Source: Eledone cirrhosa (lineage: Eukaryota). From it: DNA of 64,000 bases. Position numbers and translations under genes: made by a program. Shown here one piece after another: positions 7,491 through 55,050 of the stretch; within the stretch, counting starts at the first letter, position 1; every line of letters begins with the position of its first letter. Below the pieces are notes generated by a model, which saw nothing but the letters and a program-made list of their open reading frames with translations, was not told the origin of the DNA and searched no databases. The DNA is taken from positions 277,822,001 to 277,886,000 of the forward strand of contig OZ024742.1 in assembly GCA_964016885.1 (NCBI GenBank), written 5' to 3'.

Positions 7491-8198
7491 TTAAAGACAC
7501 AAATATAGACACGCACAAACAGACAAACACACACGGATACACATTCGCATACACACACAGACACATGCGTATAGACATGGTCACGTACATACTCACTCAC
7601 ACACAGGCACGTACACACACACATATAGACACACTGTCAGACACATACATACTATCCCAGCCACAACCAACCCACTCTTCGTGTCACCCCCATCTTATCA
7701 TCACACCAAATTATACCATCACTTACCTAAATTACATTATCGCTCCATGTGTTAAGATATGTTCCGTTAATCACCCACTCCTCACTCGCACTCGCCTGTT
7801 CATTATTTATTAGGGTTAAAGCCCTTCTCATACCCATCATCATCATCATCAACATCCATATCATCACCATCATCATCATCATCATCATCATTCTTCTTCG
7901 CCGTCATCGTCAGAATCGCCATATAAACACGTATGCTCACACATATATATGTATATGTAAAATGATATATAAATATATATAAATTTACACACACACACAC
8001 ACGTGTGTGTGTATGTGTGTGTTCTGTATATATGTGTGTGTATGTGTATGTGCGCGTATGTATATGTGTATTTGACTCTCTCTGTGGGTACGATTTACTT
8101 TTAATGCTGTATTGTATTGTATTGTTCTTAATTCTATTGTATTGCTTGCCAACACTTCTGTTGTCACTTTTTACCATTCTAGTGAATAAAAGTATTGC

Positions 8199-8199
<1 letters not shown>

Positions 8200-8250
<51 letters not shown>

Positions 8251-8253
8251 TAA
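8200..8253. repeat. (AAT)n microsatellite
   Basis: Direct reading. Confidence 0.95.
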
Positions 8254-10639
8254 ATGTTGTATTTTCCTCAATACTTATTACTATATTCACCCCCTTTGTT
8301 CTTTCCTTGTACTGACATTTTTTTTCTCAATTATATATTATTAATCAATTTTGTTTTTTACATTTTCTTCAAAATCTTTAACACACAACCAAAGAATAAT
8401 CGTGATGGTAGAAACGGCGCTTAAAATGGTTTTATTTCATTGTTGTAAGTCATAAGAGAAAGTTATGTGGCCATGACCTTTTGCACGGGCTCCTAGAATG
8501 GTAAAGATAGCAGAGTAGGGAAGAGGAAACTTCGAATCAATCATTGGTTATCCTTCGACTAGAGAGCTGTAGTTTATATTAATGCCTATTCCTATACATT
8601 TCCACTGACTTCGGTTATTGAACAATATCCATGGTGGGCACCAATTTCAAAGGTTTAGTCGGTTACATCTGTCGGTATCAGTACATAATTTATTAGCTGC
8701 GACATATTTAACGAACCCGGGAGGATAAAAAACAAATGGGCTTTGTCTTGATTTGAACTCAGATAGTAACGACAGAAATGTCATTGATTGCAAAAATAAT
8801 AACAAATAGATATATATTTGTACATGAATGTTTTTAGGTGAAGATTCATTAGAGCGTAGGACAAAATGTCTTGTGGTATACCACCGTACTTTATTTTATC
8901 GGACCTAGGAAAGATGAAAAGCGTCGATAGAATAAAGTACCAGTCTCAAGGTGGTGGGATAGCAGAATTGTTAGAGTCGGACAAGATTTCTTGTAGTAGT
9001 TGCCTCCGGCTCTTTGCATTCAAATTCAGTTCAAATTATACCGAGTCTTTCTTGGGTGGTAGACTTAATCCATCACTTGGTTTAACACCACAACCTGTTC
9101 CTCGATGCCTTCAACGCACTCCATTCTTTTGTAAGATTTCGGATCAGGTGTTCTGTTTGAGGGTAGTTTCTTATTCCTTCTCATCAGTCTCAGAGACCCT
9201 GAAAAGGGTCTTAGGTAATGCTCTCTACTCTGCCGGACTAAACAATAAACAAATTGCACAGTAGAGCGATGTTTATCTTTTCTTGAAATATCAGAAGCAC
9301 TAATAGAAATGATACTTGTTGTATATCATGCTCTTTACTATTTGCACTTGGAGTTCAATATACAATGAACAGTTGATTGGAAGAGCGCAGTCTTTCTCGG
9401 CTGTGAGCATTTTCGGTAAAAAAATTAACTTTGATTGGACATTCTTTGAGAGGAGCAAATATACCGTTGGGTACTTTTTATAAATAAGAAAATAACATAT
9501 AAAAACACCCAGCAAACAAAAACAGCGACAAAAATAAAACAAACAAAGCTGAAAATTTATTTTTTAGTGTTGTAGGAGTTTTGCGAACGAGATATCTCAC
9601 AAGTTAATGATGATCAAATCTGGTGGTTCACAGTTCTTGTTTTACTTGCGGTGCACTTTAGGAAAATATGAATATTTAGTGCACTTTTTAGATAAAGTCG
9701 AAAAATATATTTAAAAAATACGTGTTTATATATACTAGCTTATTTGGACTCATTCTTTATTAAATAAATGAGGCATAGTTATGCGGATTTCATATTTAGA
9801 ATTTCAGTTTGTATTTTCCACATTTAAATGTTATCATTTTATCATTATTTTATGGTACGGCTATTTGTACACAAGAGTGCTGTAGCATACGGTTTAGAAA
9901 CACCGACTTAGTTGAACTGGGGAAACCCGAATGGTGGCCAATAGTGAGAGGGGGTTGGCTAGTATTGAGCCACAACATACTTGACATTGCTTAAATGTTT
10001 AAATATCTCAGAGGAGTTATAGTTAAAATGAATATTTTATTTTAAAGTTAACTACATTTTTTGTGGTATGAAAATATTTTAATATTGTGAAGTACACACC
10101 AGATGACAATCGAAGACTACACTGGAAGATGAGGGCAATAGTTTGCAAAATTATCTTCGTATCTTTTACGTTGAAAACTTTCCCTTATAGAAACAGAAGA
10201 GGACAACGATAAAATACCATGAGATGAGATGAAATAATGCGATGAAGATATATGAAAAAACAAAAAACAAACAAAACAAATAAAAAACAAAACAAAAAAA
10301 AAAACAAGCTGCAAAAGAACAACTTTGCTCGACTGATTCTTGAAATCAGCAATACTGCGATGTGCAACACTCAACTGGTACTTTCATGGATGGTAGAATT
10401 TATCAAGGAATAACTTCTGTTAGCAAAGTGGGTGCTAACATAATGTTGTGAACGAAGATACTTTTTATGAATTGACATTAACCCTTAGTGAGGAGATATG
10501 TCCTCAGCATAATTATTAATTTGGTCTAATAGAAGATGACGCCTGGTCTTTGGTCAAGACTAACCAAGAGCTTGCACCTGGAAAGTTTCTTGCACCTGGC
10601 AAGTTGATTTGTGGAAGGCAAGTAGCAGATGTTCAATAG

Positions 10640-16460: not shown

Positions 16461-16806
16461 CTCCTGGTCATTCTTCCCTACATGTTTCAGTCCTGGGTGT
16501 CCTTTTACATCGTGGATCAGAGGCCTGGCGCACCACGACTGAACAAAGTCTGATTCACCGCCTTGGGTCCTATTCCCCTCTTGGACTCAACACCTCTCCC
16601 CAATTTCTCTAATACCCCGTCCATTATCACACCCCTAGATTCCTATCGCTTTCTCTTGATCGTTAGCAGCTTCTCTTACAACTAACACATGCCGAGACAC
16701 ACCCTTATTTTAACATACTTTTGCTCATAGCTTCGTACTTACATGCACACACACTCTTTTACTCACATATACACACACATTTCTTCTTAGCTTCGTACGG
16801 ACCTAT

Positions 16807-16896
<90 letters not shown>

Positions 16897-17247
16897 CACA
16901 TGCTTACAGACGTGCTCAAGTATAGCCCTTTTTACAAAACATTTTTTTTCCCATTTCAGGTAGACGCGCTCCATCATCCACTTTTCTAAAAAATAAATCA
17001 TACACAAAACGCCAGCTCCAACAGTTTTCCAAGAGATGTCAACATGAATGAACCTGTTATTTTTATCAAAAGACATTTTTTCCAATTCCATCCCGCCCGT
17101 CCCCCCAATCTATTTTATTTCTCATTCTTTCTTCTGATGAAGGACTAGCGTCCGAAACGTTAAGACCCTCTTCCTGCTATATCAAGCGTTAACTTAATAT
17201 ATGCCTTCCATATACTGTACCGATTGTGTTGTTATTTCTGTTTACCT

Positions 17248-17252
<5 letters not shown>
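16456..17252 (+). mobile_element. 5'-truncated Penelope-like element: GIY-YIG endonuclease C-terminus, 3' region and hammerhead-bearing pseudo-LTR
   Basis: 16456-16612 encodes SPGHSSLHVSVLGVLLHRGSEAWRTTTEQSLIHRLGSYSPLGLN, matching the PLE GIY-YIG end (H..S..GL....R...E..LI..LG...P.GLN). Hammerhead at 17130-17165. Flanked by (TA)n and (ATAC)n. Confidence 0.8.
17130..17165 (+). ncRNA. Minimal type I hammerhead ribozyme
   Basis: TCTT-CTGATGA-a-GGAC-tagc-GTCC-GAAA-CG-TT-AAGA: intact core, 4-bp stem II, stem I TCTT/AAGA, palindromic ACGT in place of stem III. Confidence 0.78.
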
Positions 17253-17279
<27 letters not shown>

Positions 17280-17298
17280 CATACATACATACATACAT

Positions 17299-17350
<52 letters not shown>

Positions 17351-17351
<1 letters not shown>

Positions 17352-17624
17352 AAAAGAGATGAAATCGAAAATGAAACTGGAGTCTTATTTTTAAAAAAAA
17401 TATATATATTTATTTGGTTCCTTTACCGGTTTCGCAGTTCTTCTGCTTTTCAAAAGTAGAGTTGAGATGGAGGGTCTGTGGTTTTTAGAAAAAACACAGA
17501 CCCTCCATCTCAACTCTACTTTTGAAAAGCAGAAGAACTGCGAAACCGGTAAAGGAACCAAATAAATATATATATTTAAAAAAAAAATAAGACTCCAGTT
17601 GCATTTTCGATTTCATCTCTTTTT
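17351..17624. repeat. ~274-bp near-perfect inverted repeat (arms ~130 bp, spacer ~14 nt)
   Basis: 17351-17480 is the reverse complement of 17495-17624, apart from one substitution and homopolymer differences. Confidence 0.93.
17518..17555 (+). ncRNA. Hammerhead-like motif with U3-A8 core variant (mirror copy on the minus strand at 17420-17457)
   Basis: CTT-TTGAAAA-GCAG-aagaa-CTGC-GAAA-CCGG-TA-AAG: perfect stem II, palindromic ACCGGT stem III, GUA cleavage triplet, 3-bp stem I. Confidence 0.55.
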
Positions 17625-17686
17625 CTTTATACTTTCACTCGTGTAGGACACCTCGGTTATTTTTCAATTTAAAAAAAAAACCTCAC

Positions 17687-17739
<53 letters not shown>

Positions 17740-17899
17740 GGTGTGGGTGCGTCGTGTGAATGTATATATGTATATGTGTATAAAAGAGAGGTATATGGAG
17801 AGGCATCTATGGTGTGTATGTATCAGAAACATGCATTAGTCTCACTATGAAAATAGTAAGCTGTGTTCATGTCCCAGCTCTCAGTTGCCATGAAAGGAT

Positions 17900-17941
17900 G
17901 CTAGACACGTGTTTCTAGATTTTTATCCGTCATCAGTGACG
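17900..17941 (-). ncRNA. Degenerate minimal hammerhead
   Basis: Minus strand: CTGATGA-cggataaaaatcta-GAAA-CACGTG-TC. Core and palindromic stem III present; stem I and the stem II closing pair are mismatched. Confidence 0.5.
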
Positions 17942-18574
17942 TTTACCTACTCCATACTAAGTCAAGAATAAGCTATATGTATATATGCCTTTGTCCGCAA
18001 GCAACATTGGCTAAAGATGTTCATTTACATATCGTGCAAATAAAACATGGGTTACTGAGTGACTTCATTACAGCTTAAAATATTCATAGCAAATTAGCAT
18101 CTCTACATGATGTTTTATTTAAACTATATGCATTTGTGCTAAATGCATATGCATTGATATTTACCTCTATTATATACAACACTATGTTAGTGCCACTCTC
18201 AAGTACTCACACACACACACATATATATATATATATACACGCATACATACATACATGCATAGACACATACATTCCTACATACATATATAGATATATATTT
18301 ATATTTATATAGATATATTTATATATAGATACATATACATACATATAGGCATACACGTATATAAATAATAATAACTCCGGCTACTCTAGTATCTTGAATA
18401 TAAATTTGATTGGAAACACGAAACAAACAAATAAATCTGCAATCTATTTCCAGCAAGTTGTGTACAGATACAACTCACTCACACACAGTGCCCACACCTT
18501 CATATGTACACACGCACACACATATAATATATATAAACTCTCCTTCTCACCGCCTCTCCCTCTCATTCCCCCTC

Positions 18575-19056: not shown

Positions 19057-19646
19057 TATATATACACAAAGATACGCATATCTATGTATATATCCATACA
19101 TCCCTATATACTATATGAATTATCCGTTAGATCAGCAAACTCTGATACGAGTCAACTAAGATAGATATAACATAATAAATACGACTTTGCTATATATACC
19201 ACCAGAAAAATGTTTCTTGTTAGTTTTATTCTTTTAAATCTACAACCCAACAAAAAACATCTCCCCCCTCTCTCTCTTTATATATATATACTCACACGCG
19301 CGCGCGCGCATACGCACGCGTACAAGTATACCACTTTATACAAAACGTTTTTTTTTTCTATTTCATATAGACGCGCTCTATCATCCACGTTTTAAAAAAA
19401 GTATATCATACACAGAACGTCAGCATCAACAGTTTTCCAAGAGATGGCAACATGTATGGACCTGCTATTTTTCTCTAAAAACGTTTTTCCAATTCCACCC
19501 CGCCCGTCCCTTCATACTTTCTAATTTATCATTCATTCCTAGCTTCCGAAAGGTTAAGACCCTCTTCTTGCTATTTCAAGCATTAACGTAATATATTCCT
19601 TCCATATACTGTACCGATTGTGTTGTTATTTCTGTTTACCATTTAC
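18730..19646 (+). mobile_element. Second, more decayed Penelope-like remnant
   Basis: 19340-19646 aligns with 16930-17252 but lacks the CTGATGA core. 18730-18860 has frameshifted traces of the GIY-YIG end (DISVL..GVLH..RRRR..FGS..YGLN). Confidence 0.55.
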
Positions 19647-19678
19647 ACCCACACACCTACACAAATATTTATATGCAT

Positions 19679-19709
<31 letters not shown>

Positions 19710-22721: not shown

Positions 22722-25156
22722 CTTTCAGCGGCACTTTGCTCAGCTGTTCGAGCAGGGCGGCGCGCCGTGAGTGGCTATGGATTTCAGTCCATACCTCGAC
22801 GGCCTACCGCGACTCTCCGACAGCGAGGCCAAGTCCTGCGAAAGGCCCATTTCAGCCGCTGAGATAGGGGACGCGCTGAGCCAATGCGGCAAACGCAAAT
22901 CTCCACGTCACGAAGGTCTACCCCACGGATTTTACGTAGCAATGCCGGACTTGTTCTCCGGTCTCCTGGAAGCGGTCTACTGCAACTGGCAGCATAACGG
23001 GAGAATTTCCAGTTCTGTGAGCAGGGGCGTAGTAACACTAGTCAGGAAGGACTTGAATAAGGGGGATGACATATGTACCTTCCGGCCCATAACTCTGCTA
23101 AACACAGAGTTAAAGATTTTGGCCAAGGAGTTGGCAAAGAGGCTGGCGTTTGTCGTAAAAAACCTGGTGGGAGAAGCGCAGACATGCGCAATCTCGACCA
23201 GGTCCATACACGACAACCTCCACGTCATGCGATACACTATAGAGAGGGTAGGGTGTAAACCCGGCTTCGGTTGGGACCTGATCAACTTGGATCAGTCTAA
23301 GACATTCGATAGCGTTGACCATCGTTACCTGGATGAGGTGCTCGAGGCAACAGGCTTCGGACCCGTGCTCAGGGGCTGGATTGCTGCAATGCACAACAGC
23401 AACATCTGCTCAAGTGTCAAGGTGAACGGCTACCTCTCGGAGCCGTTCCATATCACGCGATCCATTCGACAGGGATGCCCTCTCTCCTCCCTTCTGAACG
23501 TACTGACTCTCGAGCCACTACTGCGGAAGTTGGAGCTATTACAGGGCATCCTTCTGGAACTGGGACTGCGGAAAGTGGCGTCGGCATACGCTGACGACGT
23601 GACAGTAATACGAAAGGTTCACAGGAGCGAAGCTGAACCGGGACAAGTCCATCGGTTTTCAACTCGGATTGTGGAGAGGCAAACCGATGCCTTCCGATGG
23701 CGTCGTCGGTCGTTGGACGGAAGGACCGGTAAAGTGCTCGGGGTCTGGTTTGGTCCGGACCTCCAGGTGGAGAAGAACTGGAACGAGGTGACGGACAAGG
23801 TGTTTGCATTCACCCAGAAGTGGGCCGAGTGCAAACTATCCTTGAAAGGTCGAGCGGAGGTGGCGAACACTTTTATAGCGTACGTCATCTACTACCGATT
23901 GACTGTCGTGCCTTGTCTTGCCAAAATGCTCACCAAAATGGAGCGCGAGCTCTTCCAATTCCTTTGGAAGAAGCGGGCTCCTTTGGTGAGAAGATCCATC
24001 TGCTGCCACCACCCTTCCAACGGAGGGCTGGGGATGCCGTGGCTGACGATGCGCAAACACGCGCTCAGGCTGCGGCATCTCTACGTATTCCTCACCGGAC
24101 AACCGGTGTGAGCCCCGTTCGTGAGGCGAGCCTTCTCACGACTCGTCTCGCTGACCGAGCTACAGTCCTGGGTCAAGTAAAGACCGAGGAAAATGGGCGA
24201 CTGGCACATCGAATGTGCTCAGGAGCTCACAGCCCTCTGGCAGGCGGACCCGGCGATCAGTGGAGACTCCAATTCGTCATTCTATAGAGGGTTGATCCGC
24301 AGCAAGTGCGACCACGCGCTCGGAGAAGCTCTAGGCGTAGAGGAAGACGAACTGGCCAGTCTGTTCGGTAGGACCTTTCGCCCGGGACCGATGGACAACT
24401 TCCAAAAGTCCCTGGCCTGGCAGTTTTACCGAGGAGCTCTACCAGTTCGAGACAAGCTCTACAGACATGGTCGCCCGGGAAGGGACCCTTCGAAAAAGAT
24501 CTGTCCGAGATGCGTGTGAGACGAAGAAACCGTCGGGCACGCATTCATACACTGCCCGGGCGTTACCGACTTGTGGGGCTATGTAGAACGACTATTTTCG
24601 CAGGTGAGACCAATCCCGTTGACCACCGAGTCCATTCTCATGATCAAACCGCCACCCACCTTCAAAAACGAAGGAGAGGCGGTTTTCCTTTGTGTGATAG
24701 CTATGGCGAAAGAGGTTGTATGCTGGACAAGGTTAAAATGGCTGAGGTCAGACACCTTTCTCTCCGGCCAACAACTGATTCTTTTTTTCAAATACCACTT
24801 TGGAAGAAGAATCAGGATGGAGAGAGAGGTGCTGTACCCCAACAAGTTTTATGAAAGGTGGGTGAAAGTGGCGAGAATGGCCCGAGTGAATGGGCCTTCT
24901 CTCTATATCAGCCTGTTGGTTGAGGAAAAAGAGGAAGAGAGGAAAGGGGTACAAACTCTTCGTACTCCTGGAGATGAGGTTTGCACATTTTTTCGGGGGT
25001 ATTTGTTACCCATATGAAATGTCTCCCCCTATTGGGGAAAATCGATTAACTTTTAAATTGAATTTGTGATAATATTTTACTCGTTTTTATTGTATGTAAA
25101 CTTCCCCCTTTGTATTTGTCCTCTTCTTTTGTGGCCCTGTGGCTTATAAAGAAACA
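22722..25156 (+). mobile_element. Tx1-like (L1 clade) LINE copy A: 5'-truncated, RT + C-terminal CCHC, degenerate
   Basis: FRPITLLN, RQGCPLS, AYADDV, GGLG, CPRC..ETV.HAF.HC; stops and frameshifts; 3' end GCCCTGTGGCTTATAAAGAAA; (ATCT)n on both sides. Confidence 0.92.
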
Positions 25157-25245: not shown

Positions 25246-28200
25246 CGGAGAATATAGACGTGATTTTGTTTCGCTCCTGCATTTTGTCGGAATTTATTAC
25301 GAGAAGCGGTAGGTCTGTTTAAGTAATTCGTTATTTGTTGTGTTTAACCGCTCGCCTGGGCCTGCAGACGTTGGGTAAAATAAATTTCGCCCCTTTCTGG
25401 GGCGAAATTTAATAGTTAGAAGTTGTCGATAAAAAAACGTTTGGTGACAATGGACGCCATTAATACGACGCATGCCACGCCCCCCAAGGAAAGTGATAGA
25501 GAGAAGGTAACAGCACAACGCTGTAAGCCTTCCCTCCTCAGTCCCGCAAAGGACACCACGGAATCAAAAGAAAAAATTGTGGAAATGGGTGAAAACCCCA
25601 AAAGTAACAATTTACACAAATAAGAACAACAATGACAATAACAATACAACCAACAACAGCAATAATGACAACACCAACAAAGGAAAAAAGCAGGCCAACA
25701 CGAATAACAACAACAACAATGATAACAACACGAAAGAAAACGGACCCACAGCTGCAGTCTCCTTCGCACAAGCGGTCCGAGAAACGCAGACATACAAGGC
25801 ACTGGACATCTTGAATGCCAAGAAATTGCTGAAAGAAGCAAGGAATTGTGTTACTTTCGGGGAAGGTGGGGAATTCACAATTACCTCCCCCGAAGAAATC
25901 AGAAGGGACACGGTCGGTCCTCAGGACTGTAATTTTTAGGACAGTTTCGAACACGACTAGGAAACCGGCTCATTTGTCCCAAAGCGAAATTGAGCTGGTC
26001 CTAAGTAGTGCCTGGAAGGATATCGCTTTCATACAGAAAGGGAAACTGTATGGAAGCATATCTGTTTTAATGCAAGATGAATTGGCGCCACGGAAATATT
26101 CTGTGTCGCCAATTGTATCCAAAGCATACACCTTTTTCCTCACATATTTGGGGAAAAGAACTCAAAAGATAAGAATCTCGGGCATCAAGCCAAATGCGAG
26201 CACTTGGGTGCTAACGGGATTCTTAGAAGATAAGGACACAATACTTTCGATAGGCGAATCCACCGGGGCCGTATTCGGCGGCAATAACCTTGAAGTTCTG
26301 GTCAAAATGAGACCAGAACGGATAGCAAGAATACCGCAGCGTGTGTCCCTGGATGGAGTCGCCTTCATAAACATTTCTGTTGAGGGCAGGCGGCCTTCAT
26401 GCTACCACTGCTCAAGAAGTGGTGACCTGAGGGCTTCCTGTCCTCTTTTAAATGCCACGCTCCCCAAAAGATGCTTCCGCCCACCCCACACAGAAAAACA
26501 CAACCACCACCACCACCATCACCACCACCACAACAACACCACAACAACAACAACACAAGACACTGTCTCACCCAACCCCTCCCCACCTAAAACAAATACA
26601 AAAGTAACCACAACAAAAACACCAATATACCCCTCCCCAACAACACCTACGAGGACCCCTTATCAACGTCAGCCAGTGACGACGAGGGAGAACCCTTTCA
26701 GCCTGTAAAAAGAAAGAAAAGAAGGCACCACATTAACAAAAATGCAACAAACACACAACCACCAGCACAAACAGAACAAACATCGCAAACAAAAATACCC
26801 ACGCCTCCCGAAAACATAACACATACTACAAAACGCAAACACAAACAAGAACAACAAACAAAAACAAACACAACACAACAAAAACAGTATACATACACCA
26901 ACACAAACAACAAAACACTTGTGCAAACAATAGACAAAGACCCTTCGGTGGAAACCGAAGGGAATATGTTAACCAACGCGGCGACTAAACCGCATTTAAA
27001 AATGGTTAGGGTCCCAAGGGACACCTACGCAATGCTCAAACAGAACTTTCCCGAGGACGTGGGGAACCCCTGTACTAGACCTACCAACCGCGTCCTCTTG
27101 AAATGTTTTTGAAATAGATTTTCTGACTGTGCTACTGTGGACGTGGACTAATCATAGCGGAACATCTAGGTTGTACCTAGATAGGTTCCTAGTTAGAAAT
27201 AAGGATAGGGACATATTAAGCTGTCCACGAATGTTCATGGTTGACTATTCGGATCACAAGTTGGTGACCGGAATGATCAACCTTGATAGAATCCATAGAC
27301 AAGGACCTGGTTACTGGAAGCTAAACTTGTCCTTACCGACAAACAAAGCTTACAGTAAGCGGATTAGCACTCTAGTTAAGCAGCGGTTGACGGGGGCAAT
27401 TGTCAACAGCAGGTGGAGGGGCTCTCTCAAGAGAGAAATTAGAATAGAATTGATAGGTTTTAATCAGGAATTAGCATAATATAGGACTAGAACTGAAAGG
27501 CAATTGATAGATAGAGTAGAAGAGGCGATTAGGATGGGAAACGTGGCCGGCGTGCTGGCGTCAAGAACGGCCCTAGACCAGTTCTTTGATGCGAAGCACG
27601 AGGGCTGTGTTGTCAGGAGTAAAATACGTGCTCTGGGTAACGAGAGAGTCAAAGCTGTTAGCTGGGCCCGAGTGACAGAGGCAAAAAGTGGAAACAAGTC
27701 CAAGATTCGGTCTTTGAAGGACCAGGATGGACACGTGATCCTTAGACCTGAGCGGATGTGCGATGCCTTTCAACGGCGCTTTGCACGACTGTTCGGGAGG
27801 AGCAGCGGGCCCGGTGAGGCCATGGATTTCGGTCCATACCTCGACGGTCTGCCGCGGCTCTCGAACGGGGAGGCTAAGTCCTGCGAAAGGCCGATTTCAG
27901 CCGCTGAAATAGGGGAAGCGCTGAGCCTATGCGGCAAACGCAAATCTCCCGGTCTCGATGGTCTACCATACCAACTTTATGTAGCGATGCCGGACTTGTT
28001 CTCCCATATCCTCGAGGCGGTCTACTGCAACTGGCAACAGAACGGAAGAATTGCCAGTTCTGTGACCAAGGGCATAGTCACGCTGGTGAGGAAGGACGAG
28101 AACAAGGGGGATGACATAGATAACTTCAGGCCCATAACACTGCTAAACACAGAGTTAAAGATTTTGGCCAAGGTGTTAGCAAAGAGGTTGGCGCTTGTCG

Positions 28201-30210
28201 TCGGGAACCTGGTGGGAAAAGCGCAGACATGCGCAATCCCGTCCAGGTCCATACACGACAACCTCCACCTCGTGCGATACATCGTAGAGAGGGTAGGGAA
28301 CGAACCCGGCTTTGGTGGGGCCCTGATCAACTTGGATCAATCTAAGGCGTTCGATAGGGTTGACCATCGGTAGCTGGATGCGGTGCTCGCAGCGGCAGGC
28401 TTTGGACCCGTTTTCAGGGGCTGGATTGCTGCAATGCACAGCAGCAACACCTGCTCGAGGGTCAAGGTGAACGGCTACCTCTCGGAGCCGTTCCAAATCG
28501 CGCGATCCATCAGACAGGGATGCCCTCTCTCCTCCCTTCCTTCTGTATGTGCTGGCTCTCAAGCCACTACTGCGGAAGTTGGAGCTGTTGCAGGGAATCC
28601 CTTTGGAACCAGGATTTCGGAAAGCGGTGTCAGACTAAGCCGATGACGTGACAGTAATGGTGTCATGCGCCTCGGAAATCGAGCAGGTCGGCACCTTACT
28701 GGAGGAATACGAAAGGTTTACAGGAGCCAAGCTGAACCGGGACAAGTCCGTCGGTTTGCAACTCGGAACGCGGAAAGGAAAACCGATTCCCTCCGACGGC
28801 GTCGTCGGACACTGGACGGAGGGACCGGTGAAGCTGCTCGGAGTCTGGTTCGGACCGGACCTCCAGGTGGAGAAGAACTGGGATGAGGTAACGGACAGAG
28901 TGTTTGCACTCACCCAGAAGTGGGCCGAGTGCAAACTATCCCTGAAAGGTCAAGCGGACGTGGCGAATACTTATATAGCGTCCGTCATCTACTACCGCTT
29001 GACCGTCGTGCCTTGCCCAGCGAAAACGCTCGCCAAAATGGAGCGCGCGCTCTTCCGATTCCTTTGGAAGTAGCGGGCCCCTCTGGTGAGGAGTTCCATC
29101 TGCTATCGAACCCTTCGAACGGAGGGCTGGGGATGCGTAGATACGCATTAAGGCTACGGCACCTCCAGGTATTCCTCACCGGTAGAGCCGGTGTGGGCCC
29201 CTTTGGTGAGGCGAGCCTTTCCGAGACTCGTCTCACTCACCGAGCTGCAATCCTGGGTCAAGCAAAGACCGAGAAAAGTGGGCGACTGGCACATTGAATG
29301 TGCCCAGGTGCTCACGGCCCTCTGGAAAGCGGATCCGGCAATCAGTGGAGACTCAACCTCAACATTCTATAGAGGGTTGGTGCGCAGCAAGTGCGACGAC
29401 GCTCTCGGAGAGGCTCTGGGCATGGAGGAAAACGAGCTAGCCAGTCTGTTCGGAAGGACGTTTGGCCCGGGACCGATGGACAACTTCCAAAATTCCCTGG
29501 CTTGGCAGTGCTACCGAGGAGCTCTACCCGTTCGGGACAAGCTCTACAGACACGGGCGCCAGGGTAGGGACCCTTCGAAGAAGATCTGTCAGAGATGCGT
29601 GTGTGACGAGGAAACAGTCGCGCACGCATTCCCACACTGCCCGGGCGTTGCTGACATGTGGGGCTGTGTGGAACGACTACTGTCGTGGGTGGGACCAATC
29701 CGGTTGACCACCGAGTACATTGTCACGATGAAACCGCCTCCCCCCTTCAAAAACGAAGGAGAGGCTGTTTTCCTCTGTGTGATAGCTATGTCGAAAGAGG
29801 TTGTATGCTGGACGACGTTGAAAGGGCTGAGGTCAGACACCTTTCTCTCCGGCCAACAACTGGTCCTTTTTTTCAAGTATCATTTTAGAAGAAGGATCAG
29901 AATGGAGGGTCAGGTGCTCTACCCCAGCAAGTTTTATGAAAGGTGGGTGAAAGTGGCGAGAATGGCCCGAGTGAATGGGTCTTCTCTCTATATCAGCCTG
30001 TAGGTGAGAGAGGAGAAGGGACACTCGCTTTTTGTGCTCCTGAGGAGGAGGGTTGCGACCCACCCCAACGCCCCCTCCCTATTGAGGACTTCGATTGTTG
30101 AATTTGATTTGTTATATATTTTTACACGTCCCTTGAAATGTATGTAAACTCCCCTCTTGTATTTTTCCCAATCTTTGATGCCCTGGTGGCAAATAAATAG
30201 AAAGTTATAA
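25246..30210 (+). mobile_element. Tx1-like LINE copy B: 5'UTR + ORF1 + ORF2 with most of the APE domain deleted, degenerate
   Basis: ORF1 pieces 25450-27110 (N-rich, SFA, CYHCSRSGDLRASC); abrupt join to late APE (WTWTN..SRLYLDRF..SDH..YWKLN); RT KSPGLDG, DQSKAFDRVDH; CQRC..HC; followed by (ATCT)n. Confidence 0.92.
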
Positions 30211-45865: not shown

Positions 45866-48492
45866 GTTCTTTGAGTCTCAGTCATTGATGTTAGTTAACT
45901 GGAAAGTTTGTTGATATGAATATCAAGCCACTACCTGCAGCCTCAGATATTCAGGACGTATCGGAGGGTTCTTGCTGTTCCCAGCAAGCATGCCTTTTGA
46001 AGTGTTCCAAAAAGCGGGGCGAGACCAATTTTCTTTAACCATCCCTGGAAACTCTTTGAGATAGTACCTAGTGCGCCTATGACAATCGGGACCACTTTGA
46101 CCCCATGGCAGTTCCAAATCCTTTTCACCTCCCACCTTTAAGTCCTGGTATCGGTTAATTTTCTCCATCTCCTTCTCTTGCACTCTCGTGTCGAATGGGC
46201 AGGCTACATCCACAATCAGGCACGATCTTTTTCACTTGTCCAAAACTACCAGGTCAGGTCTATTGTGTTCCAGTTTCTTGTCCGTCTGTATCCTAAAATC
46301 CCACAGCACCTTCACCTGATCGTTTTCCATTGCCGACTCTGGCTTATGCTCATACCACTTTTCAAAATGTGGTAAATTGTTTACTTTTCATAGGTGCCAG
46401 TGGATCACCCTGCCCATCACATCATGTCTCCAGCCCTTATAGTGAGTCTGGCTAGGTGTTTACACTCGGATACAATGTGAGCCACAGTCTCCTCTCTCTC
46501 TCTCCACAGATCCTGCACAGTGGGCTAGCCTCCTCCTTGTAAATATGGTGTTTCAGCCACTTCGTTTTGAGGGCCTGCTCTTGCGCAGCCATTAGCATTC
46601 CTTCTGTAGCCTTTTTAAGGTCTCCTCTATTCAACCAGTTCCATGTCTGTGGATATCTAAATTCAGTTTTCTCAAAGAAGGTACTATGAAGGGATTTTTC
46701 ATGAAGGTTGCTCATTCTCCTTGATATTTCTTCCTTGGACATCTGCTGGTCTATTGTCCTCTCCTTCAGTAAAATTCTGAGCATTGGCTCCTTACTATCA
46801 GTCACGTATTTGTGTAGGTTGTTTTTCGCCATCTGAACACAGTCCTCTATGCTGATAAGACCTCTTCCACCTCCAGATCTCCTTAAGTAGAGTCTATCGA
46901 CATCACTCCTCTCGTGGAACATGTTGTAGATAGTCAATAGCTTCCTAGTCTTCCTATCCATTTCTTTTTGTTCAGCAACATTGCATCTAAGAATTCCCGC
47001 ACTGTACCTAATAATAGACACAGCTCGGGAATTTACTGCACTTATGGCATTCCTACTGTTCAGATGTGACTTTAATACGCTCCTTACTCTCCGAATGTAT
47101 TCAGATCTTATCAATTCCTTCATTTTTTTGTTCTTGATGTCATCAGCCTCCAGAACACCTAAATATTTGTATCCTTCTTCAGTATCAATTTCCTTTATCA
47201 TCTCACCTGTTGGTACCTGGATTCCGTTGCTTCTGCTCAATTTACCCCTCTTCATCACAAGGACTCCACACTTACTAATACCAAATTGCATACATATATC
47301 ATTGCTGAAAATACGGACAGTGTCAACAAGCACATCCAACTCCTTCTCACTCTTCCCAAAGAGTTTAAGATCGTCCATGAAGAGGAGGTGGTTGATGGTA
47401 AGCTCTCCCTTTCCCAACTTGTATCCTGCTCTCACTTTTCGCAGTATAATGGTCAGGGGATCAGGGCAAGGACAAACAACAGAAGGGACAAACTATTTCC
47501 CTGGAAGATACCTCTCTTGATCCTCACGCAACCCAAGAATCATCCGCCCGATGTTAACTCTGTTTTCCAGGACTTCATACTTTTGCTCAACAACTGTCTG
47601 ATGTTATCTGCCACCCTGAAGATCTCTAGGCTTTTGGTTATCCAAGAATGAGGTACCATGTCGAATGCCTTTTTGTAGTCTATCCATCCCATGGCAAGAC
47701 CAGTGTGTCTCCTCCTGCAATTCCTCATTACCATCTTATCAATAAGTAACTGGTCCTTTGTACCACGGGACTTCTTTCGGCATCCTTTCTGTTCGTCCGG
47801 TAACAAGTTGTTTATGTGGAGGTGATAGTAGATTTCCTAAGGCACAATGCTTGTTAACAGTTTCCACATTACGGACAGACATGTGATAGATCTATAGTTG
47901 GTAACATCATAACCCTTGGTTCGGTCTTTCATTACCAGAACTGTGGTACCTTTTGTCAACCACTCTGGTACCTCACCTGACATCAAGCAGTCATTGAACA
48001 TGTTTGTCAGTTTCGGGTTGAGGGATCTTATATTTTTAATCCAATACCCCTGCACACCATCTGGGCCTGGTGATTTCCAGTTGGTTAGTTTTCTGGCCTG
48101 CCCCTGAAGAGTTTCAATTGTGATACTCAAATCAGTTTGTTGGTGAGCCTGTTCACTAATCTCCTTTTGTACTGTCTCAATCCACACTGCCTGATAATTA
48201 TGTTTAACATTCTGCTCCCATATTCCTCTCCAGAATGTCTGAGTTTGTTCCGCCTCAGGGATAAAGTCGTTGCCTCTTTCTTTCCCTTCAAGCTGTCCAA
48301 ACAACATCTTCTGGTTGTTGTCAAACATGCGGTTCTGTCTATACTGACTGACTCTGTTCTCGTATCGCCTGATTTTTGCACTCTTTGCTACAATGCGTTG
48401 CTTCAGTTCCTCTATGATAATATTTAGCTTTTTCCTCCCAGTTTTGTACTTTATTTCCAGTCTATTTTTAGTGTCTATGTTTTGTAGTGTCC

Positions 48493-48532: not shown

Positions 48533-51500
48533 GAGTCTGAACGGACGTCTTTTTGCTCGCTCTCGTAAGTTTATTTATTTACCTGTCAAAACTTATTTAT
48601 TGAATTTTGTTGTTGTTGTGTAAGGCATACAAGCCCTTGGACTTTGCCCTGTGAAGGGGAAAGTATAATATTTGGGCCTTTTGGCCCAAATATTTGAACT
48701 TTTATACATTTAAAAGAATTATCGAGAAAAAAAAATAAAAAAAAACATGGCTGAGCCCCCCCCCCCCCCCCCTCCGCGATATGTCTGCTGTCGGGCGACA
48801 ACGACGTAGAAGTTGAGAGAAGCGCTACTACGGCGAAATTAACAGAAATTGATACAACAAACACCACCACAAACAACGTGAACAAAGACAGAAATGATAA
48901 CAACACTGAGAACTCTAATTTTGAATAAAATGACAGTAACAGCGACAACCAAAATACAGATAACAGAAAAAATGACAACAAATGCAACAACAATATCAAC
49001 GCCACTAACATGGAAACAAATAGCGACAACAGCAACAATACCAACTGCACCGACAACAACGGCGGCACCAAAGAAAACAATGATAACAGCAACAACACCA
49101 ACAAGAACAACAACAACAACAACACCACCAACAAGAAGAACACTTTCGCTAAGGCAGCAGCCAAAAAGGGGCCATGCTTCAACATGGACCTCTCAAATAA
49201 AGATGAAAAGTTGTCCCAGGCCTGGAAGCTCATCAAGCAAGAGCAAACCTGGGCCAACTTAACTGTCCCGGTAGAAGCTATTGAGGCAGTGGAGCGCAGA
49301 ACGGTACATTATAGATGCATCTCAGCACAAACCAAAAGGGCAGCTTTAATTCCACAAACAGATGTCAAAGTCGCGCTGAGGTGCATCAGAGATGACACCG
49401 ACTACATAGCGAGGGGCAGACAATACGGCACCATTTCGGTGTTGTTTAAGTCAGAAGCCCCTGCTATGAAACACGCTATGACACCTTGCACAACCAGCAA
49501 GGTATAAATTACCCCTCCCACATGGGAAAAAAAACGGCCCCTCTCCGCATTCCCAGAATCCCAACAGGACTTGACATGTGGTGGCTTCTGGGATGTGTGA
49601 TAGTGGAGGTGATGGATACCGTCCCGATAGAAGTGACAAGAACTGCCAGAGAGGACTGGTCCAGGGTGGACTTGGAGATACTTCTCCAGATCAGGCCGGT
49701 GAATGTGAAGACAATCCCGGACCACATCCGCCTTCAGAATGGGACGGTCATTCATATTATGACCGAGGACAAAAGGCTGCATTGTTTTGTTTGTGGGGAA
49801 AAAACCCATTTGCGAGCCTTCTGCCCTCAACGTTTGAAGGATGTAAGAGGTCGAAGGGCTCCACTGCTGCCGACGCCGGGGCGAGGACTGCAACCAACAC
49901 CAGCACCGGAGATACGAGACAGCTTTCCTCGGGACGTGGGAACCCCGAACGTAAAACCCACTTCAAGACTTTTAAAGGGTTTCCCAAAAGAAACCCCACC
50001 AACTATGGAGGTCGAACCACCCGACCTTCACAAGAGCCCGGAAGGTAAGTAAACCTTTCCTCTCTCTGTTTTAGCCTGCCAACATGGCCGTATTAAGAGT
50101 AGAAAGTTTAAATGTTCGAGGCCTGGGATCGTCCTGGAAGCAGGGTCACCTGCTCAACGACCTCAGGTCTCTAGAGATGGATGTAATTGCCGCCAGCGAG
50201 ACCAGGATTTCCGACACGCGCGTACTAGCCCCCATTTTCGACGACTATCAGATCTTTGCATCTGTTAGTCGGCCAGGAATGGGAGGTGGGGTGGCAGTGC
50301 TGTTTAGAAAAGGCCTGGATATCGAGGTAAGGTCGATCTTCCGGGACCCGGACGGGAAGTTGGTGGTCCTGGACGTGAACAATAACGAAGGTGGTGCCTT
50401 TAGACTGGTGGCCGTCTACGCCCTTACCGGGGAAGGACGGCCGGACTTCTTTAGACGCCTGGATGCCTTTCTTGGTACGTCTCGCCCTTTACTGTTAGCG
50501 TGGGACTGGAACGGCATCTTAGACGCACGCTGGGACTGTGTGGGAGTATCCGATAGGAGCGGGGGGTGCAAAAGCCTCAAGTACCTGATCAACCAGTTCC
50601 AACTGTCTGACAGGTACCGACTAGATTTCCCCAATGCACCAGTGTGGACTTAGACTAACTGCATAGGGTCATCTAGATCGTATATAGACAGGATATTCAT
50701 TAGGAAAATAGACAGAAATAGTGTAAGCTGTCCACGTTTTAAAACGGTCGTCTATTCAGATCACAAGTTTGTGATCTGTATGGTCGACCTAGATAAGACG
50801 CGTAGGTTAGGACCTGGTTACTGGAAGCTGAACATGTCATTTCCGGCACGTAAGGCTTACAGGGAGCAGGTCAACAATTTAGTTAAGAAAACGTTGACAG
50901 GGGTTGTCGTCAACAATAGATGGTGGGGGCCTCTCAAAAGAGAGATTAGAGTAATGTCGATAGAGTTTAGTAAAGAAGTAGCGTTAGAGAAAAATAGAAA
51001 GGAGGGGGAGTTGGTAGATAAGTTAGACGAGGCTATTTGTAGTGGCATTGCAACTAATGTGCTAGCGGCGAGAATGGCATTAGACCATTTCTTCAATGCG
51101 AAACACGAAGGTTGCATTGTCAGAGCTAAGGCGCGTGCTCTGAGAAACGAGGAAACCAAAGCTGTTCGATGGGCCCGCGTGGAAGAGGCGCAGCGTGGTA
51201 ATAAAACCACGATTAGGTCTTTGACGGATCGAGATGGACACGAGCTGAACGATTCCAAACGGATGTGTGAGGCCTTTCGCCAACATTTTGTTCGGTTATT
51301 CGGGGGAAGTGGCGGGTCAGAGACGGTGGCGGAATTCAGTCCCTACCTCGATGGCTTGCCGCAACTCTCGACGGCCGACGCTGGGCGCTGCGAAAGTCCG
51401 ATTACTTCAGCCGAGATTCAGGATGCCCTTGTCGGCCGCATGAGGCGCAAGTCACCTGGTTTGGATGGTCTGCCCTACGAGCTTTACGTAAATATGCCAG

Positions 51501-52020
51501 ACTTGTTCTCCAATCTCCAAGAAGCGCTCTACTGCAACTGGCAGCAGAACGGGAGTATTCCCAGTTCTGTGAGCCGGGGTGTAGTGACGCTGATAAGGAA
51601 AGACGAGATCAAGAGGGACACATTAGACAATTTCAGGCACATAACTCTGCTCAACACAGAGTTTAAGATTTTGGCCAGGGTGTTAGCGAAGAGGTTGGCG
51701 CTTGTCGTCGGGGATTTGGTTGGGGAGGCGCAAACTTGCGCAATCCCAACCAGGTCCATATACGACAACCTCCGTCTGATGCGATACGTCATAGAGATGG
51801 TAGGGTGTAAACCTGGCTTCGGTGGCGCTCTGATCAATTTAGATCAATCGAAAGCATTCGATAGGGTCGACCATCGGTACCTGGAGGCTGTCCTCAAGGC
51901 GGCTGGCTTCTACCCCGTATTCTGAAGCTGGATCGCTGCAATGCACTGCGGCACCTGCTCGGTGGTCAAAATTAATGGCCACCTCACGTAACCGTTTCAG
52001 GTCTCCCGACCGGTCCATCA
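48533..52020 (+). mobile_element. Tx1-like LINE copy D: 5'UTR + ORF1 + APE + first half of RT, 3'-truncated
   Basis: Begins right after (ATT)n 48494-48532; ORF1 CFVCGEKTHLRAFC; ORF2 from 50084 SLNVRGL, ASET, AVYA, DWN, SDH, YWKLN, KSPGLDG; breaks at the QG motif. Confidence 0.92.
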
Positions 52021-55000
52021 AGGACCGTCCAAACCAGGCGATTTACCCCTCGTGCAATTAGCCATCGCTTCCCGTATTTCACCGGCTGTTATTGGCTTTT
52101 CCCAACACTGTGCTGCGGTCGTCGAGAGCCGAGGCAGTCCGTCGAGGTATGCACTGAAGTCCATACCCGATCCGGCCCGCCGCTGCTCCCGAACAGTTCA
52201 GCAAATAGCTGCTGAAAAGCATCACACATCTGCTCGAGTTCGAGTAACACGCGCCCGTTTTGGTCAGATAAAGACCGAATTGTGGCTTTGTTGCCACGTC
52301 GCGCCTCTGCCACCCGGGCCCATTGGACGGCTTTTGTCCCCTCGTGTTTCAGAGCACGCGCTCTAGCTCTGACAACGCAGCCTCGTGTTTTCCGTTGAAG
52401 AATTGGTCGAGTGCCAATCTCGCCGCAAGCACGTCGGTTGCGATGCCTGTCCTAAACGCCTCTTCTAGCTTTCTGACTAGCTCTCCCTCTACTCTATTTC
52501 CCTCTATCACTAGTCCTTTGCTAAACCTAATCGACTCTACTTTAATTGCCCTTTTCAAGGGGAACCACCACCTATTGTTGACGACCGCTCCGTCAACGCC
52601 CGCTTAACTAATACGCTAATCCGGTCTCTGTAGGTTTTGAGCGCTGGGAAAGACGCGTTCAGCTTCCAGTAACCGGGTCCTTGTCTATGAAGTCTGTCTA
52701 TGTCGATCTCAAAGATCACAAATTTGTGGTCTGTGTAGTCGACTATTTTAAATTGTGGACAACTTATACTAGCCTTATCTAGTTCTCTGCAGAATACCCT
52801 ATCGAGATACGATCTGGATGACCCCATGCGGTTTGTCCATGTCCACATTGGCACATTCGGGTGATCCAGTCGATACCTGTCAGACAGTTCAAAACGTCTG
52901 AGCAGGTTGGTGAGGCTCTTGCACCCTCCTCCCCTATCCACTAGCCACACACATCCCAGCGTGCGTCCAAGATATCGTTCCAGTCGCCCACTAACACTAA
53001 AGAGCGGGACATTCCAAGAAAGGTCTCTAGACGTCTGAAGAAATCTGGCCGTCCTGTCCCTGTCGGGGCATAGACGGCTACTAGCCTGAAAGCGTTGCCT
53101 TCGGTGCCGCTTACGTCCAGCACCACCGACTTACCTTCTGGGTCCAGGAAGATGGTCCGTATGGCGAGACCCAAACCTTTCCGAAACAACACGGACGGCT
53201 CAGAGATGCGTACACCTCGTAACCGTCGAAGATCGGTGCGAAAGCTTGTGTTTCGGAGATTCTCGTCTCGCTGGTGGCCACCACATCCATGTTTAGTGAC
53301 CTGATGTCGTTAAACAAGTGAGCCTGCTTCCAAACCGAGCTCAAGCCACACACGTTTACACTTCCGATCCTGAATACGGCCATGTTGGGAGAGGAACGGG
53401 GCAAGTGAGAAAGGATCACTTACCTTGATCGTCTGGTGAAGGGACCGTTGAATCGTCCCTTTGGCTGGTCGTCGGCTCTTCTGTGAGTATATCCGAGTAT
53501 ACTCTCCGGTTGAGTGTCCCTCCTAGGTCTCTGAAATCACCAACTGCGTTGAGGAAATTCATTTTAATGTTTGTATATTGTTTCTGTGATATTTTTACCA
53601 GTCTTATGTTCGTTCGTGTTTTGATTGGTGCTGGTATTATGTAGTCGTGCTGTGAAATATGTTTTCAATTATTTAAGTCATTAGTTTCTTATTGTGTGTA
53701 TTTATTGCTGAGTATTTCTTTTTCTGGGGGTGATGTGGGGTTCTGCTATTTTCTTGTCGTTGTTGCTGGGTGTGTTGTTTTATTGTTGTGTTTGCGATGT
53801 TGGTGCTTGTGCTGGTGTTGTTGAAAAGTTGTCGTTGTTGGCGGTGGGGTTGCCGCCGGCGGTGATGGTAGTGCTAGTGTGGATGGTGATGGTGTTGGTG
53901 GTGTTGCTGCTGTAAGTCTCTTTGCAGTAGCCTTCACCCTTTTTTCATTTCTTCCCTCCCTTTTCGAAGGCGACGATGCGCTGCTTCTGCGTTTGTGCCT
54001 TCTTGCGACCTTTTGCCATCCCTCTCCCACCTCACACTCCATGTCCGATTCTGTGAGGTCGGGGAGGGGTACCAGCCCCACTTTTTCACTTGTTCTTGTT
54101 GGTGATGGTTGCAGTGGAGTCTCTGTTGCAGATGCAGTTGGTATTACTGTTGTTGTTGTTAATACTTCCACTGCTGCTGCTGTTCTTGATTTCCGTGGTG
54201 TGGGTATGGGTGCCACGGACCTATTCTTCCTGCTTGCCGCCTGTCCTGTTCCTGGTAGCAGTGGAGCCGGTTTCGGAAGGAGGGGGTCCTCCTTTCTCGG
54301 GGTCTTCTCATTGCAGAAGGCCCTGGGGTGAGTCTTCGACCCACAGCGATCTTTTCAGGCGTTTGCCATCAACACTTATGGGAAGTTGAGTGCCGTTATC
54401 GAAGTCTATCACATCCGAGATAGCTTCGATGCACTCCTGGTTGGTTTGAATTAACATCTCAATGGAGGCGCCGACCCAATCTTCTCGTACTTTTTTCTGT
54501 ACTTGCAGTACGGTTGTTTTGTCCTCGAATCCAACGAGGACAGACGCGGCCAGCCAAGAAGGGGCCATCCCGGGTGCTGGGAGGTGTGACTTGGGTCAGT
54601 TTGACCCTCACAATTTTTTGCCTTCAGTCGGAGGGCACCAACGCCATTTCCTCGTGCCTTAGGGTTACTAAGGATTGAGCCTTCGCCTTCTGGGGTGTAG
54701 AAAAAAGCACGTACACGGTGGCATATTTCTTGCCTCGGGTGATATGCTTTTTCCGCTGCCACACCGACCCTAAGGCTTTTTGTATTTGAGCCTCTGTGGC
54801 TCTTTCAACCCTACGTGATTTTGTGCTTACTGTACGGTACGTGACCGTACAGTGCTGTTGGGTTTCGAAAAATTCTTCGGCTGCCTTGCAGTTGCTCGTT
54901 GTCCGGTTTTCGTCACCATCTTCCTTGCTTCCTGTAATTCCTCATTTGTTATAAGGATGGTTTCCAGCTTCTTTGCGATACCTGCAAACGCGATTGGTTT

Positions 55001-55050
55001 TTCTTTCTTGTTGTTGTTATCATCAGAGTCAATAGGTACAGAAGGGAGGA
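52021..55050 (-). mobile_element. Tx1-like segment E (inverted): ORF1 + APE + pre-RT linker up to KSPGLDG
   Basis: Minus-strand ORF1 pieces (AFAGIAKK, RTVTYR, LPISVDG); ORF2 start MAVFRIGSVNV at 53383; AVYAP, GDWN, TDH, YWKLN. Confidence 0.9.

Follow-up and report, generated by a model that had tools for sequence, protein, structure and literature searches.

A head-to-head pair of pseudo-LTR copies carrying a U3-A8 hammerhead motif in Eledone cirrhosa

What kind of element leaves a palindrome with mirror copies of a hammerhead ribozyme motif, and does a U3-A8 core in place of C3-G8 mark a compensated or a decayed ribozyme? These questions are raised by a locus in a 64,000-nucleotide stretch of the Eledone cirrhosa genome (contig OZ024742.1, positions 277,822,001 to 277,886,000; hereafter the window). 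The palindrome originally predicted at 17351-17624 is real, with 129 of 137 positions pairing within these limits and the two arms mismatched at the other 8. The inverted repeat consists of arms of 143 nucleotides each (17344-17486 and 17489-17631), which are 94% complementary and meet head-to-head at 17487-17488. The insertion extends beyond these limits, since the right arm reaches 17693 through a one-sided tail of 62 nucleotides (17632-17693, plus strand). This right arm (17489-17693, plus strand) is a 5′-truncated pseudo-LTR (pLTR) copy with a long 3′ end and shares 94-95% identity with both pLTRs of a full-length copy of the element (L229). The left arm (17344-17486, minus strand) is an inverted, 5′-truncated pLTR copy with a short 3′ end (..TTTATA) and no tail, and is 92% identical to the pLTRs of L229. 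The tail sequence is the 5′ UTR stretch found directly before the ORF1 ATG in full-length copies (e.g., L088). By sequence, the insertion is bounded by (TA)n on the left (17340-17351, the target microsatellite overlapping the arm end) and on the right (17694-17732).

Both arms carry UUGAAAA-GCAG(AAGAA)CUGC-GAAA-CCGG-UA, as predicted, at 17522-17551 on the plus strand and, by sequence scan, in mirror orientation at 17424-17453 on the minus strand. The plus-strand copy is a type I hammerhead motif with predicted cleavage, as judged from sequence, descriptor scans and folding. Its core U3-U4-G5-A6-A7-A8-A9 (17522-17528) is followed by a 4-bp stem II with a G10.1-C11.1 closing pair (17529-17532/17538-17541), then GAAA, and then the palindrome ACCGGU where helix III would be (17545-17550). 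A17 comes next and forms the GUA cleavage triplet, with the predicted cut site at 17551/17552, and stem I is of 3 bp (CUU/AAG; 17519-17521/17552-17554), all on the plus strand. The motif thus has a Watson-Crick 3-8 pair, U4 G5 A6, A9, G12 A13 A14, A15.1-U16.1 and H17, as tested for a hammerhead core. The extra base between positions 9 and 10.1, called conserved in minimal hammerheads by Cervera and De la Pena (PMC4209133), is absent from the window motif; it is also absent from 3 of the 15 motifs matched in related elements (L123, L128 and L131), and is therefore not universal. Over 16500-18500, Rfam returned no hammerhead match at E≤10, and the models that it did list were of miRNA hairpins and fell short of their gathering thresholds; the standard models thus miss this motif.

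In the 3.0-Gb genome, a motif pattern that left positions 7 and 8 free has 11,820 exact matches, compared with 0 for the reversed pattern used as control, and the motif is therefore not a product of chance. Among the first 100 matches, 99 read TGAAAA and one reads TGAGAA in the core. The original prediction suggested that UUGAAAA was the norm of a family rather than a product of decay, and that a family consensus of CUGAAGA would speak against it. All 62 family arms, which were taken from position-ordered loci and located by stem II rather than by the core, read TTGAAAA, and CTGANGA on the same stem II has no match genome-wide. The expectation that CUGANGA searches would miss such a family holds as well, and extends to the Rfam hammerhead models. 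The 3-bp stem I is correct for the locus and does not describe the family: 4 bp (CCUU/AAGG) are found in 44 of the 62 arms and the 3-bp variant of the window in 12. Contigs from the deepest of four runs (6,730 contigs; possibly the source sample, and hence not counted as evidence) that cover the right arm show no alternative letter at a frequency of at least 5% at 17522-17528. Sister families combining a canonical core with a CCGG loop were sought in the same genome with two patterns, which gave 0 matches, and 6 compared with 144 in the control, respectively; a close canonical sister family was thus not found by pattern search. An apparent rule distinguishing the arms near the centre (AAAAAAC versus AAAAACC) was rejected as an artefact of query ranking, as AAAACC is found in all 30 of the position-ordered copies.

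As uniformity among young copies is evidence of no more than common descent, relatives were examined. The scan covered 503,524 bases from 119 loci of related elements, with any base allowed at positions 3 and 8, giving 16 possible pairs. Fifteen descriptor matches were found, all on the coding strand, of which 11 (10 distinct) have C3-G8, 4 (3 distinct) have U3-A8 and none has any other pair. In ten block-shuffled sets there were 0.4 matches per set, and neither C-G nor U-A was among them. On a small tree of 14 rows, comprising the family of the window and 13 distant relatives at 26-48% identity (L147 was dropped since its motif is that of L146, and L164 was counted once), U3-A8 requires four changes, all forced by well-supported branches. 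The sister row of the window's family has C3-G8; a step from C3-G8 to U3-A8 in the window's lineage may be inferred from this sister at 48% identity, the relatives with DNA being at most about 52% identical in protein. Because the cores are never mismatched and U3-A8 has four separate origins, the change looks compensatory, as had been proposed from the window alone, with positions 3 and 8 covarying across related families. This repeated, never mismatched swap provides modest comparative evidence for selection on the core. In a neighbouring family with a canonical core, aberrant copies are single changes (U3-G8 in 2 of 12 and A8 in 2 of 100). Thirty-nine PLE-type RT loci (L189-L227) lie within records filed as bacterial genome assemblies; these are likely contamination from animal hosts, of a kind against which PMC8557442 warns.

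The core is not the novelty for which it had been taken. As described by Cervera and De la Pena (2014, PMC4209133), U3-A8 replaces C3-G8 in the minimal hammerheads of the Cercyon Penelope-like elements (PLEs) of Schistosoma mansoni, with about 1,300 matches, and Perreault et al. (2011, PMC3088659) present other natural U3-A8 hammerheads and cite activity in vitro. In its available text, the Octopus vulgaris repeat annotation PMC13282606 has no mention of hammerhead, ribozyme or palindrom-.

The arm sequence is part of a larger coding element. At two loci (L024/L031 and L021/L032) it is continuous into an RT + GIY-YIG frame, with GIY-YIG at E = 4e-7 in L031. ORF2 of L229 (771 aa) contains GIY-YIG at E = 3e-6 and RVT_1 at E = 1.8e-6 (28.3 bits, slightly short of the cut-off at 29.6). 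In both L229 ORF2 and L031, the RT and then a C-terminal GIY-YIG share one reading frame, as expected of EN+ PLEs, and a CX4CX2C linker followed by CxxC..H..H, as well as DKG and GLKF motifs, are visible in the translation. Among named homologues, Octopus bimaculoides ranks first with 75% over 62% of the query, ahead of Argonauta at 60-61% and then bivalves. The 5′ coding part of the ORF has 447 candidate sites, and the 40 of these that were scored are 99-100% identical. A sense motif lies upstream of this part in 9 of 25 copies, 8 of which were fetched for full-length analysis. In 7 of the 8, direct pLTRs flank the coding region, with two direct motifs 4,672-4,689 bp apart (about 4.68 kb), and the window arm matches both pLTRs of L229. 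ORF2 is unbroken in 4 of the 8, and a 400-aa ORF1 starting about 198 nucleotides after U3 is found in all 8. These sequence features indicate that the parent is a young C-terminal-EN Penelope-like retrotransposon, of Neptune/Nematis type by the feature definitions in PMC8557442. The original prediction had allowed for a PLE or a retrozyme-like family; the arm is the pLTR of an RT + GIY-YIG element, which upholds the former, and the absence of tandem arrays among the first 100 matches leaves the latter unsupported.

ORF1 (L229:1020-2222; 400 aa) is rich in Q, N and R in its second half and has no Pfam match at E≤1. The first 162 codons of ORF2 contain no Met, and ORF2 lies in the −1 frame relative to ORF1, with which it overlaps (L229:2132-2222, and at the same place in L228-L235 and L031). 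A U UUU UUA heptamer is present at the overlap in 9 of 9 copies, and an in-frame UUUUUUA behind 132-549 open codons is found in 10 of the 43 related loci for which sufficient upstream sequence was available. A conserved −1 ribosomal frameshift between ORF1 and ORF2 is likely from these patterns; an ORF1-RT frameshift with a pseudoknot is given for PLEs in the legend to Fig. 1 of Craig et al. (2021, PMC8557442). Two PLE-like GIY-YIG frames of other families (L031:1051-2163 and 8185-8637, both minus strand), recognized from their translation, adjoin the U3-A8 element in L031; neither has a Pfam match.

The arrangement of the window is common in the family. Among the first 100 matches, all on one chromosome, 24 head-to-head neighbour pairs within 5 kb (48 of the 100 motifs) were found, with motif-to-motif spacings of 51-3,542 bp. 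Within the same distance there are only one tail-to-tail and one same-strand pair of neighbours, both of which are separate insertions. With the window included, exactly one arm is long-tailed in 23 of 25 pairs and both arms are long in 2; the partner of the long-tailed arm has the short end in 17 of the 23 and is otherwise cut in 6. Palindrome centres differ between loci, the tail can be on either side, and the two arms of one locus mostly share subfamily variants. The 5′ ends of 31 arms, some of the longest being bounded by the length of the locus, lie 32-43 nucleotides upstream of U3 in 17 cases (a 12-nucleotide interval), at 0-31 in 2, at 44-100 in 2 and beyond in 10. The arms in the window start 33 and 35 nucleotides upstream of U3, inside this hot spot. 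Such a pile-up would be explicable by a transcription start or by a hot spot for folding back. At one junction (L045/L046; G000:C1 near 3,005,050), the sequence is as expected from fold-back priming on a 5-nucleotide TCTCA/TGAGA complementarity. Elsewhere, two sense motifs 289 bp apart (L091/L232:524 and 813) lie upstream of a full-length copy, beside an inverted one, and are a candidate for a natural short-range dimer. The 5′ copy in L032 was considered as a direct pLTR and ruled out, since the alignment shows it in inverted orientation. Arkhipova et al. (2013, PMC3846280) described inverted pLTRs that meet head-to-head, with palindromes at the junction and an optional tail of 31 bp, and saw self-priming as the likely cause, and Craig et al. 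(2021, PMC8557442) gave the tail of PLE insertions as 30-40 bp. Given the head-to-head pairs and this published inverted-pLTR form, the palindrome is, by its sequence layout, the usual form of a PLE insertion.

These results suggest that the palindrome is very probably a head-to-head pair of 5′-truncated pLTR copies in which U3-A8 is normal for the family, the motif likely cutting RNA only as a dimer in transcripts of full-length elements and being predicted to be silenced by self-pairing in those of the stub. Two steps in its origin are almost certain: the arm derives from the direct pLTR that flanks ORF1 and the RT + GIY-YIG ORF2, and copying usually ends 32-43 nucleotides upstream of the motif. 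Following the PLE literature, the element endonuclease would nick (TA)n and the RT would copy the RNA from its 3′ end. The product would then fold back and prime an inverted second copy, with resolution leaving the tail on one arm, and we regard inversion by such self-priming as probable.

Folding of a single arm gives stem II with P = 0.79, helix III with P = 1e-4, and stem I with P = 0.28 for 4 bp and P = 0.005 for the 3 bp of the window, and the self-duplex of ACCGGU is predicted at −8.3 kcal/mol. This predicted behavior fits the dimer model for PLE minimal hammerheads, for which cleavage in vitro was reported to be weak, dimers included (Cervera and De la Pena, PMC4209133). Such a dimer requires two copies on the same strand, as are present in the full-length element. 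Its two sense motifs could pair via ACCGGU in the element RNA, build helix III and cut after GUA, with U3-A8 replacing the C3-G8 tertiary pair and dimer cleavage releasing unit-length RNA. We put the chance of real cleavage in full-length element RNA at somewhat better than even. The motifs of the stub lie on opposite strands, so that its transcript is predicted to be a hairpin of about 135 bp with no hammerhead fold; a 350-nucleotide transcript across the palindrome folds into a single hairpin of −212.8 kcal/mol, in which the hammerhead pairs (stem II) have P about 0. The double-stranded RNA originally expected from read-through is therefore supported by folding prediction. A catalytic meaning of the mirror arrangement is not: the two motifs pair with each other, and the arrangement is predicted to silence the motif and not to build a hammerhead. 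The weak stem I, the lack of the extra base after position 9, a tail longer than the 30-40 bp in print and the 2 of 25 pairs with two long arms count against this explanation. As the 3-bp stem I occurs in 12 of the 62 arms, efficient cleavage is perhaps unnecessary for spread.

The last point bears on a less favored reading that nevertheless has a real chance, namely that the motif of this same element is a catalytically dead or near-dead relic, with U3-A8 fixed by descent from one master. Invariance among young copies such as the 40 scored ORF copies shows descent and not selection, and the 3-bp subfamily has spread despite its weak stem I. Naiad PLEs, moreover, spread without canonical hammerheads, and hammerhead function in EN+ PLEs is called unclear in PMC8557442. 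However, U3-A8 was reached by four separate families, with no mismatch in the relatives' 15 matches, and the motif retains stem II, G10.1-C11.1, GAAA, the palindromic helix III and the GUA site. U3-A8 ribozymes are also reported to be active in vitro (PMC3088659).

It is very unlikely that the palindrome is itself a self-propagating unit, either a retrozyme or a MITE-like fold-back element. It is short, non-coding and high in copy number, with inverted ends in TA repeats, and some junction sequences recur (L010, L017, L022 and L029; L065 and L071). The motif spacing and the side of the tail nevertheless vary, subfamily variants are mostly common to both arms of a locus, and the arm is continuous with the 3′ region of an autonomous element. 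The direct tandem arrays of short hammerhead units that define animal retrozymes (bioRxiv 10.64898/2026.07.22.740005) are absent among the first 100 matches, where a single same-strand neighbour lies within 5 kb. Nor are there the symmetric TIRs and fixed interior of a MITE, as the ends differ by 62 nucleotides and the centres vary. PLE inverted structures are known to trouble assemblies (PMC8557442), but an assembly or chimeric-read artefact that mirrored one real arm is extremely improbable here: the arms differ from each other and only one is tailed, the mirroring stops at the element ends with two unrelated flanks, and 23 of the 25 pairs show this asymmetry.

A more elaborate version of the preferred head-to-head pLTR reading appears rather doubtful to us. 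It combines an active, selected dimeric ribozyme with a 5′-end pile-up that would mark the start of a pLTR RNA of ~215 nucleotides, copied whole and folded back, and places the ribozyme inside a 5′-UTR intron. A donor-like GTGAG coincides with the place where the 5′ ends pile up, and the motif is followed by a pyrimidine tract with TAG at its end (L229:783-790 and 925-950; window 17610-17647); these could bound a hammerhead-containing 5′-UTR intron. If so, the spliced mRNA would lose the ribozyme and the unspliced template would keep it. On this view the perfect hairpin stubs, which number several thousand, might also give rise to much dsRNA. On the antisense strand, the majority stem I variant reads AAG|GTGAGT, a consensus splice donor.

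The window contains other elements as well. A canonical minimal hammerhead of another family lies at 17134-17163 (plus strand), 180 bp to the left of the palindrome. It has CUGAUGA, an extra A, a 4-bp stem II, GAAA-CG-UU and a 4-bp stem I, and is found inside a decayed direct repeat (16942-17315 / 19349-19709), the second motif copy of which, near 19540, no longer has the 5′ half of its core. Rfam also missed this motif at E≤10; a descriptor requiring a 2-bp helix III misses it and a relaxed descriptor finds it. The family has 3,916 matches in the genome, with 2 of 12 loci beside a GIY-YIG-like frame. Unlike the U3-A8 family, it shows no head-to-head pairs among its first 100 matches. RT fragments of other retrotransposons (RVT_1, zf-RVT) are located at 22771-24111, 27480-30003, 46452-47492, 50654-51925 and 54819-55607, and none of them matches ORF2 of the U3-A8 family at E≤1e-4.

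The U3-A8 core and the head-to-head palindrome have thus both been published already for Penelope-like elements, and the locus is one of thousands of insertion scars that requires no special explanation. For annotation, the consequence is that about 11,800 motifs of the Eledone cirrhosa genome escape ribozyme screens that rely on CUGANGA or Rfam, and that repeat pipelines may take the stubs for MITEs or miRNA hairpins. Being young, with unbroken ORFs and two direct motifs in full-length copies, the family is well suited to tests of PLE hammerhead cleavage in vivo, and would make the role of PLE hammerheads directly testable.

Among known systems, the Cercyon hammerheads (PMC4209133) resemble the present ones in their U3-A8 core, their location in PLE pLTRs, their type I topology and predicted dimer, in a core covariation that the CUGANGA descriptor misses, and in pairs lying 100-700 bp apart on opposite strands. 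The family here has about 11,800 near-identical motifs, whereas Cercyon has about 1,300 heterogeneous ones. It also differs from Cercyon in its 4-bp stem II, in the lack of an extra base after A9, and in the CCGG palindromic loop, a feature shared with the variants from Drosophila, rotifers and shrimp. Animal non-LTR retrozymes (bioRxiv 10.64898/2026.07.22.740005) are likewise non-coding, PLE-derived and equipped with a type I hammerhead, but they form direct tandem arrays, whereas the short copies here are inverted pairs or singles. The EN+ PLE insertions described in PMC3846280 and PMC8557442 agree in their head-to-head 5′-truncated copies, the tail at one end, the (TA)n target, and a direct pLTR that precedes the ORF when the copy is full-length. 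In contrast to what those papers describe, the tail here is 62 nucleotides long and not 30-40 bp, the ends of 17 of the 31 arms fall within a 12-nucleotide interval just upstream of the motif, and no TSD is readable inside the TA microsatellite. With the Neptune and Nematis clades as characterized in PMC8557442, the element shares the RT, a CX2-5CxxC linker, GIY-YIG with CCHH, the pLTR hammerhead and the (TA)n bias, as well as an ORF1 set off by a frameshift, as given for PLEs in the legend to Fig. 1 of that paper.
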